Source: Escherichia coli
Lineage (GTDB): Bacteria > Pseudomonadota > Gammaproteobacteria > Enterobacterales > Enterobacteriaceae
Assembly: GCF_051903065.1 (NCBI RefSeq)
Contig: NZ_CP178438.1
Strand: one strand, 5' to 3'
DNA length: 64,000 bases
In this document: positions 61,858-64,000 of the stretch, one piece after another
Position numbering within the stretch: the first letter of the stretch is position 1
Layout: each line of letters starts with the position of its first letter
Notes under the pieces: generated by a model
Database searches by the model: none
Told to the model about the DNA's origin: nothing
What the model saw: only the letters and a program-made list of their open reading frames with translations
Translations under genes and position numbers: made by a program

Positions 61858-62652
61858 TTAATGGAAACTGTGTTCTTCGCCCGGATAAACGCCGGACTCC
61901 ACTTCAGCCATATACTGCCGCACAGCCGCGCGGATGTCGCCCGTTTCAGCGAGGAAATTTTTGGCAAATTTAGGGATATGGCCGCCGGTAATGCCGAACG
62001 CATCGTGCATCACGAGGATCTGCCCGTCAGTGACGTTGCCTGCGCCAATGCCAATAACCGGGATCACCAGTGCTTCGGTAATACGTTTTGCCAGTTCAAC
62101 CGGCACGCATTCCAGCACCAGCAACTGTGCACCAGCGGCTTCTAAGGCTAATGCATCGCTAAGCAGTCGATCGCTCGCTTCATCGCCGCGCCCCTGAACT
62201 TTGTAGCCACCGAAAATATTCACTGACTGTGGGGTTAAACCTAAGTGACCACATACAGGAACGGCACGTTCGGTCAGCATTTTTACGGTTTCGACCAGCC
62301 ACTCACCGCCTTCAATTTTGACCATGTTAGCACCGGCACGCATAACCGTTGCGGCGTTTTCAAACGCCTGTTCCGGCGTGGAATAGGCCATAAACGGCAG
62401 GTCAGCCAGCAGCAGGCAGTTTGGCGCACCGCGGCGCACCGCGGCGGTGTGATAGGCGATATCTTCAACGGTAACGGGAAGGGTGGATTCATGCCCCTGC
62501 ACGGTCATCCCCAGCGAATCACCCACCAGCATCACGTTCAGACCTTCGTCAGCAAACAGTTTGGCGAAGCTATAGTCGTAAGCGGTGATGGTGGCGAAGC
62601 GTTTTTTTTCCTGCTTACATTTCTGCAATGAAGCAATAGTGGTCGGTTTCAT
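61858..62652 (-). CDS. panB: 3-methyl-2-oxobutanoate hydroxymethyltransferase PanB
   Basis: 264-aa ORF. Confidence 0.96.
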
Positions 62653-62738
62653 AACGTATCCTGATGGCTAAAGTCAGATCGATCGCATTCTAACAGTCGA
62701 AATCAGGCGGGCAATGGTTTTTAGTGTGGGGAAAATGT

Positions 62739-62761
62739 TCGCACCAGAGCAGAACTCTGGT
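62739..62761 (-). terminator. Hairpin downstream of yadC (minus strand)
   Basis: GCACCAGAG-cagaa-CTCTGGTGC perfect inverted repeat 27 nt past the yadC stop. Confidence 0.4.
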
Positions 62762-62787
62762 GCGATGAGGAAGGAATGACGTTTTAC

Positions 62788-63900
62788 TTATTCGTAGGTA
62801 AAGGAGAAGGTCGCGTTACCTGAAAAGGTTCCAACACCGACAGCAGCACCACTGCCATCCGGTACCAGCTGCGCCGTAAAAGGTAAAAGCAGCAGGTTGT
62901 TTGACCAGACGGCGAAGTTATAGTCAACCGTGTTGCTACCATCTGCTTTTAACAATACTTTGCTATTGTCATAAGTTGAATTTACTTTTACAGCCACGCC
63001 TGAAGCCGAGCCAGTCGTTTTACCCACCAGTGTGGCATCGCTGGGTTTATTTGCCGCTTTCAACTTAACCGTAATTTTACTGGCATAACAGTATTCAGCA
63101 CGGATAGAAAAAGGGATTTCCCGCGTAAGCCCATTTTTCACTTCCGAAACATAGCTGTTCCCAAGCGTTACCTGGTTGCCACTGACGTTGCCCTGATCTT
63201 GTGCCAGGGCAACTGTTGCACAGGTCGGTTCGTCAACGTAAAAATGAACGGAGCTTGTATCAACGAAAAAATTTATCCATGGTTGGTCATTATTGCCTAT
63301 ATACCAGGAAGCTATTTTACCTGGCATCGCAGTTCCTTCTGAAACCCCATTTTGAGGTTTAAATTCCGGGGTCCAGTAAAAACGAAATCGTAAATACCAG
63401 CTATCGTCACTATACTCATAGGCCCACTTTGAGCTGGCGTTATCTGTATGATTATCTGCACCACTTTGTGCAGGAAGATACAAATCAAGCTCCTCCGCGG
63501 CTCCACAACTTGTACATACTAATTCTACTGAATAAACAATACCGGGAACGGTTGTTTTCAATAAAGCATTGCCATGGTTGGTAGTATAGGTTGATAAGAG
63601 GCTGGCATCAGCAGTATTAAGAAAATGCACCGAGCTTGTGTTACTACCTAAGGATTTACAACCAATCTTATCGCCCCGAAGATCAATATGAGAATCCCAG
63701 GTCGCGAAGGATATTTCTTCCGGGACTGTGACCATCGCTGACTGTATACTGAAGGGCTTTGGGTTTATCACCATATCATAAGGCCCTTCAGCATTTCTCT
63801 CTATATAACATTCATTCGCCAATGCATACCAGGATGTGGTAAAAAATAGCAGTATCGCACTGCATAACTGAATCAACAGTTTATTGCCTTTCCTTTGCAT
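62788..63900 (-). CDS. yadC: Fimbrial tip adhesin-like protein YadC (chaperone-usher fimbrial subunit family), divergent allele
   Basis: 370-aa ORF with signal peptide and C-terminal pilin-like domain ending ...ATFSFTYE; position between panB and yadK matches yadC; shorter than the 412 aa I recall for K-12. Confidence 0.85.
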   Translation of the reverse strand: MQRKGNKLLIQLCSAILLFFTTSWYALANECYIERNAEGPYDMVINPKPFSIQSAMVTVPEEISFATWDSHIDLRGDKIGCKSLGSNTSSVHFLNTADASLLSTYTTNHGNALLKTTVPGIVYSVELVCTSCGAAEELDLYLPAQSGADNHTDNASSKWAYEYSDDSWYLRFRFYWTPEFKPQNGVSEGTAMPGKIASWYIGNNDQPWINFFVDTSSVHFYVDEPTCATVALAQDQGNVSGNQVTLGNSYVSEVKNGLTREIPFSIRAEYCYASKITVKLKAANKPSDATLVGKTTGSASGVAVKVNSTYDNSKVLLKADGSNTVDYNFAVWSNNLLLLPFTAQLVPDGSGAAVGVGTFSGNATFSFTYE

Positions 63901-63911
63901 AATTATCCTTA

Positions 63912-64000
63912 TTATTCGTAAGATACGTTAACAATAACCTGGCTTCTCACCATTCCCGATTCAGGAGGAAGGGCATTATTCACCCGCTGCATACGGGAAT
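63912..64000 (-). CDS. yadK: 3' end of an upstream fimbrial subunit gene (yadK-like), partial
   Basis: Only one minus-strand frame is open across the last 89 bp, ending ...SQVIVNVSYE-stop 11 nt upstream of the yadC start with GGA ribosome-binding site between; context matches the yad fimbrial operon. Confidence 0.45.
   Translation of the reverse strand, partial: SRMQRVNNALPPESGMVRSQVIVNVSYE

Follow-up and report, generated by a model that had tools for sequence, protein, structure and literature searches.

The gene at 62788-63900 on the minus strand of the window, by which we mean the whole 64,000-nucleotide stretch of Escherichia coli DNA analysed here, most probably encodes the two-domain tip adhesin of a lineage-II Yad/Sta-type (gamma4) fimbria of the O157:H7 type that carries a mosaic lectin cassette, a reading to which we assign a probability of about 0.85. 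Judged by sequence comparison, its 370-aa product and K-12 YadC are remote homologues and not alleles in the usual sense. The gene is nonetheless ordinary strain variation that is already catalogued in public databases. The features on which the argument draws are as follows, in the direction of transcription of the tip gene.

63912-64000, minus strand: 3' end of a yadK-like minor-subunit gene, last 29 codons, with a translation ending in VIVNVSYE and a stop
63901-63911, minus strand: yadK-yadC intergenic spacer of 11 bp, with a Shine-Dalgarno AAGGA at 63906-63910, 5 nt before the ATG (direct reading of the sequence)
62788-63900, minus strand: tip-adhesin gene in the yadC position, ATG start, 370 codons and a TAA stop at 62788-62790 (open reading frame list)
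63817-63900, minus strand: codons 1-28, putative Sec signal peptide, found by inspection, with cleavage presumed after Ala28
63256-63816, minus strand: codons 29-215, predicted N-terminal receptor-binding (lectin) domain, GC 41.5%, C31 and C81 invariant
62791-63255, minus strand: codons 216-370, C-terminal pilin domain, C227 and C271 invariant
63226-63810, minus strand: codons 31-225, cassette that varies against the O157:H7-type allele (nucleotide identity binned at 45 nt)
62653-62787, minus strand: yadC-panB spacer of 135 bp (sequence)
62741-62749 and 62755-62763, minus strand: 9-bp inverted repeat in the yadC-panB spacer, a possible operon terminator
62714-62687, minus strand: panB promoter-like site (promoter scan)
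61858-62652, minus strand: panB (open reading frame list)

Both the open reading frame list and RefSeq, which annotates the same start and stop (CDS WP_021574442.1, "fimbrial protein") in two genomes with identical DNA, bear out the first-pass annotation of an intact 370-codon frame in the yadC position between panB and the 3' end of yadK. Of the operon, the window holds only the tip gene and 89 bp of yadK, and the remaining operon genes are deduced from the record of another genome. The yadK-like gene is cut by the window end and its full extent would reach 64502; its 3' end is identical to positions 11423-11509 of L013, the 23CRST027 record, where the annotation gives a fimbrial-like protein of 196 aa. 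E. coli 23CRST027 (NZ_AP045789.1), which comes from human faeces in Ecuador, matches the last 11,511 bases of the window at 100% identity, and TUM13936 is also 100% identical over 62600-64000 but only 98.5% identical over 10.4 kb. A terminator scan did not call the hairpin at 62741-62763, whose T-run is weak, such that it stays a candidate. Further along the window, rpnC (59749-60621) encodes 290 aa here vs 300 aa in K-12, and beside it a 69-aa reading frame at 60690-60899 resembles the RpnC C-terminus (TLAQWFEEKG, GMSREDVAE and LPLTEIDKLIN); the RefSeq annotation of related genomes treats this frame as a pseudogene truncated at its N-terminus, and K-12 has no such annotation.

In 23CRST027 the seven-gene operon is intact and the order reads folK, major pilin, chaperone, usher, three minor pilins, tip gene and panB, which places the tip gene in an operon with a chaperone and an usher, as seen in that genome rather than in the window itself. 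Tested on the same record, the usher scored 1563 bits on NF007337 (cut-off 830) and the chaperone 420 bits on NF007398 (cut-off 285), and because these are equivalog models covering HtrE and YadV, the operon is of Yad/Sta type at the level of its assembly machinery. The minor pilins scored best on the StaA, StaD and StaE models, with all Sta scores below the cut-offs. All seven genes between folK and panB have diverged from K-12, with protein identities of 61% for the usher, 62% for the chaperone, 40-48% for the four pilins and 26% for the tip; in the flanks, panB, panC and folK keep 93-99% identity. Other operons fall to either side of the same divide. The B2-type operon of strain AVS0970 groups with K-12 (usher 97% identical, 417-aa YadC 68% identical), and the operons of the O157:H7 type, of O145:H28 and of the A23 type fall on the side of the window (ushers 81-98% identical). 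Tip proteins measure 403-430 aa in lineage I (K-12 and B2 strains); in lineage II, that of the window, the range is 366-376 aa for Escherichia and Salmonella, and a relative at a neighbouring site in Enterobacter mori has 380 aa. On these comparisons, the window operon is a second deep lineage of the Yad/Sta-type (gamma4) chaperone-usher operon.

The two lineages bear on how the names "yadC" and "Yad" are used, as these cover two operon lineages between which the N-terminal lectin halves of the tip proteins cannot be aligned, a situation that the literature consulted here does not clearly state. Wurpel et al. 2013 (PMC3559732) classed all operons at the site as one core-associated "Yad" type equivalent to Salmonella Sta, and Gonyar et al. 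2024 (PMC11287998) studied the yad locus in EHEC. A 2026 survey (PMC13245861) took >=80% identity to the HtrE of EC958 as its definition of Yad and found phylogroup E 0% and phylogroup D 5% Yad-positive. The window-lineage usher lies below that level, at 60-61% identity to the HtrE of K-12 and of AVS0970, which were the two references compared here rather than EC958. A second lineage at 61% identity accounts for the survey scoring phylogroup E as Yad-negative while others study the "Yad" of O157:H7, and surveys at an 80% threshold will call such strains negative despite a syntenic, intact operon. Under laboratory conditions, Yad operons are also reported to be cryptic as a rule and silenced by H-NS (PMC13245861), which means that the tip gene may rarely be expressed. 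The yadN-folK intergenic region, presumed to be regulatory (L013 17273-17614, beyond the window), has 28.4% GC, compared with 47% in the operon and 52% in the window, and this AT-richness fits the H-NS silencing reported for yad loci (PMC13245861).

The tip protein itself shows how remote its relation to K-12 YadC is. By position it corresponds to yadC, being the last gene of a fimbrial operon between folK and panB, and as the first-pass annotation stated, K-12 MG1655 YadC (b0135) has 412 aa and the panB-yadC spacer differs in length, at 113 bp in K-12 (149602-149714) vs 135 bp here (62653-62787); between yadC and yadK, K-12 has 49 bp and the window 11 bp. BLASTP aligned the two proteins at 26% identity over the C-terminal 188 aa, which is the pilin domain only, and gave no significant match in the N-terminal half. 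Profile-profile comparison (hhalign) of lineage-II with lineage-I tips reached further (probability 100%, E=7e-45, residues 108-370 vs K-12 112-412), with the alignment beginning at a common L-x-K-T-x-V-P-G-I-x-Y motif and the first ~80 mature residues unalignable, so that the protein is not alignable over its full length to YadC (PRK09723 'fimbrial-like adhesin'). Among the NCBIfam YadC-type models (NF007267-NF007270) it matches NF007269 only, at 25.4 bits vs a cut-off of 473 and hence outside the family, whereas K-12 YadC scores 884.6 bits on its own model NF007268 (cut-off 382). Xylose and annexin A2 have been reported as receptors of K-12 and CFT073 YadC, which are lineage-I proteins (PMC12442223; PMC13245861). 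As the lectin half cannot be aligned between the lineages, these receptor data do not transfer to the 370-aa protein and should not be carried to O157-type or related strains.

One could still read the gene as an ordinary divergent K-12-type yadC allele that was shortened by deletion and whose lectin domain was driven apart by diversifying selection. Its position and orientation are those of yadC, 35 of the 46 residues that vary within its 90%-identity cluster lie in the lectin domain, the lectin dN/dS against the closest allele exceeds that of the pilin domain (0.53 vs 0), and lectin-biased variation of YadC has been published for the Yad-positive set of the 2026 survey (PMC13245861). Weighed against this are the 26% identity confined to the pilin domain, the divergence of all seven operon genes and not of the tip gene alone, the retention of a length of ~370 aa across genera, and by-domain ratios that never exceed 1, with dS saturated in the variable segment, and we regard such an allele as very unlikely. 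The "divergent allele of yadC" of the first-pass annotation thus stands as to the great difference from K-12 but understates it, in that the whole operon is a separate lineage. "Shorter" likewise holds as arithmetic, with 42 aa fewer spread over several indels. Truncation or deletion is ruled out, as the Escherichia and Salmonella tips of this lineage normally have 366-376 aa and nothing has been deleted. High identity and equal length to common yadC alleles, which would have spoken against any divergence, are not seen against K-12.

The reading of a lineage-II tip adhesin draws its architectural support from domain models and a predicted structure. The N-terminus (MQRKGNK-LLIQLCSAILLFFTTSWYALA, followed by NE after the presumed cleavage) has by inspection the charged, hydrophobic and A-x-A (A-L-A) layout of a Sec signal peptide; model residues 7-23 form a helix at low pLDDT, and A28 is almost invariant in the alignment of the tip-protein family. 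Pfam PF00419 (Fimbrial) matches residues 225-369 only (E=1.6e-10, 41.9 bits vs a cut-off of 25.6), supplying the C-terminal pilin domain of FimH/PapG/F17G-type tip adhesins and confirming the pilin-like C-terminus of the first-pass annotation. A search of the family profile against PDB chains gave a match confined to this pilin domain and none for the N-domain, and for this reason the N-domain was approached via predicted structure. The full-length AF2 model has two domains (pLDDT 91.3, pTM 0.81) and places a receptor-binding beta-sandwich at the N-terminus, where it replaces the donor-strand extension. The model thereby shows, as a prediction, a two-domain tip-adhesin architecture for the 370-aa protein. 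Cysteines 31, 81, 227 and 271 are invariant across 48 homologues, a pattern consistent with one disulfide per domain.

By analogy with FimH and PapG, the protein would be exported by Sec and its 28-residue signal peptide removed after Ala28, whereupon a YadV-like chaperone would hold the incomplete pilin domain via donor-strand complementation. The tip protein would be the first subunit brought to the HtrE-like usher, where the N-terminal extension of the YadK-like adaptor would complete the pilin fold and leave the lectin domain at the distal tip, free to bind a putative receptor. The allele is a mosaic. Its signal peptide and pilin domain, like most of the operon, hardly differ from the O157 version, and the ~585-bp lectin segment is an old, separately diverged cassette that would have entered by homologous recombination.

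This mosaic structure is evident in the comparison with the O157 allele, where nucleotide identity is 56-87% across codons 31-225 and 96-100% across codons 1-30 and 226-370. At the protein level, YadN, YadV, the usher and YadK match their O157 counterparts at 96-99% and the tip pilin domain at ~96%, with the tip lectin domain at 72% and YadL at 66%. Together with the 35 of 46 variable residues given above, these values show the N-terminal receptor-binding domain to be the most variable part of the protein. By the method of Nei and Gojobori, dS against O157 reaches 1.86 for the lectin part, compared with 0.08 for the pilin part and 0.01-0.26 for most of the other operon genes, such that the excess divergence of the lectin part is mostly synonymous, which fits recombinational exchange of old segments. 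The dN/dS of the lectin part was 0.11 against O157 and ranged over 0.11-0.53 across seven pairwise comparisons, and no by-domain pairwise comparison gave a value above 1. The diversifying selection invoked in the first-pass annotation is therefore not borne out, and the pattern points to old lectin cassettes exchanged by recombination under purifying selection. Long-term balancing selection may act on the set of lectin cassettes. Cassette-like behaviour of a lectin domain fits existing knowledge of fimbrial adhesins, and the practical importance of the results as a whole is small.

The same substitution ratios bear on whether the gene could be a decaying or cryptic pseudogene remnant that yields no working adhesin, for which one might cite the poor laboratory expression of Yad operons (PMC13245861) and a GC content of 43.9% in the tip gene vs 52.2% in the window. 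We hold this to be highly improbable, since the reading frame is intact behind a good Shine-Dalgarno, the exact protein (WP_021574442.1) is already public, occurring on 310 contigs and under many NCBI accessions, dN/dS lies far below 1, none of the disulfide cysteines varies, the fold is confidently predicted, and six of six partner genes are intact in 23CRST027. Measured by these ratios, the tip gene is shown to be under purifying selection and not decaying.

Sequence on either side of the tip gene also departs from its surroundings. Beyond the window end, the yadL-like gene (L013 12034-12645, which would be 64523-65134 in window coordinates) is a second mosaic gene in the operon, with a dS of 1.09 for the 66%-identical YadL of O157 and with 79-89% identity to other close relatives, compared with 91-99% for its neighbours; nucleotide identity falls to 64-66% across L001 11001-11400, which is the yadL-like region. 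On the other side, the 5' half of panB together with the panB-yadC spacer (61990-62787) is unusually diverged for a core housekeeping gene. Binned at 200 nt, its identity to K-12, O157 and others is 86-92%, compared with 94-100% for panC and panD. Among 5426 complete E. coli genomes, this segment is matched at >=99% identity in 2, at 95-99% in 301, at 90-95% in 4357 and at 80-90% in 779. The divergence of this half of panB is probably due to recombination-tract hitch-hiking beside the fimbrial locus.

To place the allele among its relatives, we evaluated the same 5426 complete genomes for both tip types. The lineage-II tip gene was found in 621 (blastn) and the K-12-type yadC in 3551 (megablast), 1327 of the latter at >=99% identity, and in the remaining genomes neither query matched at the blastn and megablast sensitivities used. 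By nucleotide identity to the window gene, the 621 lineage-II genomes are distributed as follows.

>=99%: 8 genomes
95-99%: 20 genomes
90-95%: 45 genomes
80-90%: 359 genomes, essentially O157:H7
60-80%: 189 genomes

Beyond E. coli, the lineage-II tip has named relatives in Escherichia sp. E2661 and, at the identities given, in E. albertii (77%), E. fergusonii (54%), Salmonella serovar Kotte (50%) and Enterobacter mori (38%). Lineage-I tips come from E. coli, E. fergusonii, E. whittamii and further Escherichia species. As both tip types are present in E. coli and in E. fergusonii, both lineages segregate in more than one Escherichia species. In Salmonella Kotte a seven-gene operon occupies the exact folK-panB site, with an usher 71% identical to that of the window lineage vs 61% to that of K-12. 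In E. mori, folK directly adjoins panB and a related five-gene operon lies a few kb away between yadE and yadI (L016/L017 5461-11143), and this other placement means that the fimbrial insertion point differs between genera.

This distribution also bears on a recent horizontal import of the whole operon from another genus, that is, an island replacement and not an old Escherichia resident. Such an import could explain why the neighbouring half of panB matches most E. coli at no more than 86-92%, with a match at >=99% in 2 of the 5426 genomes, and why relatives are found in Salmonella and Enterobacter. However, the lineage is present in 621 of the 5426 E. coli genomes, in several sub-classes at 56%-100% amino acid identity, and also in E. 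albertii and E. fergusonii; the site is always the same, the operon has no mobility genes of its own, and the nearest tip protein from outside Escherichia is only 50% identical. We therefore think a recent import unlikely, and the sequence comparisons point to long residence with recombination among Escherichia lineages.

A broader reading of the lineage-II operon would have two ancient folK-panB operon lineages, one of them common to Salmonella at the same site, as a trans-species and possibly balanced polymorphism, with the lectin cassette (codons 31-225) exchanged independently of the rest of the operon. We put this forward tentatively, as something that may well not hold. If it is true, the receptor specificity of the rare allele would differ from that of both the O157 tip and K-12 YadC.

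YadC is said to have been listed by Perna et al. in 2001 among the most divergent orthologues of K-12 and EDL933. Our literature search turned up no previous account of yadC as hypervariable between K-12 and O157. What the first-pass annotation called strain-level variation in a known gene family, not a new system, is an apt description of a public protein from an O157-type Yad/Sta operon, and the known systems to which it can be compared range from distant adhesins to that operon.

Salmonella StkG (NF011833) is the best-scoring named model, aligning residues 94-370 with model positions 82-353 (E=1e-17), but its score of 64.1 bits vs a cut-off of 329 places the 370-aa protein outside that family. 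Against the solved receptor-binding domains GafD/F17G, MrkD1P, Abp1D, UclD, AtfE, LpfD and CupB6, for which the predicted model was used, sequence identity is 8-13%, and because the pockets of these domains are not conserved among themselves, a ligand cannot be read from the comparison. The five-gene chaperone-usher operon of E. mori is shorter, with a 380-aa tip that is 38% identical to the window tip. The Salmonella Kotte operon, which is Sta-type by its best NCBIfam hits, shares the site and the seven-gene order and has a 366-aa tip that is 50% identical over its full length, although it belongs to a different genus and its lectin sequence is substantially different. K-12 YadC occupies the same position, as the last operon gene adjoining panB, and both proteins are two-domain tip adhesins, whereas its partner proteins are 40-62% identical to those of this operon.

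The closest studied relative is the O157:H7 'Yad' (loc2) tip, encoded by the final gene of ECs0139-0145 in Sakai and by its counterpart in EDL933. When Elpers and Hensel 2020 (PMC7098969) expressed the Sakai operon, thin and flexible fimbriae were visualised that gave no increase in adhesion to HeLa, MDCK or Caco-2 cells, such that an adhesive role is not established even for this relative. The O157 gene shares the folK-panB locus and gene order with that of the window, its tip has 369 aa vs 370, and the two proteins differ chiefly where the mosaic cassette lies, with the pilin domains close and the lectin domains far less so. They differ too in frequency, the window allele being rare among complete genomes, at >=99% nucleotide identity in 8 of 5426, compared with the 359 that carry the O157 type.
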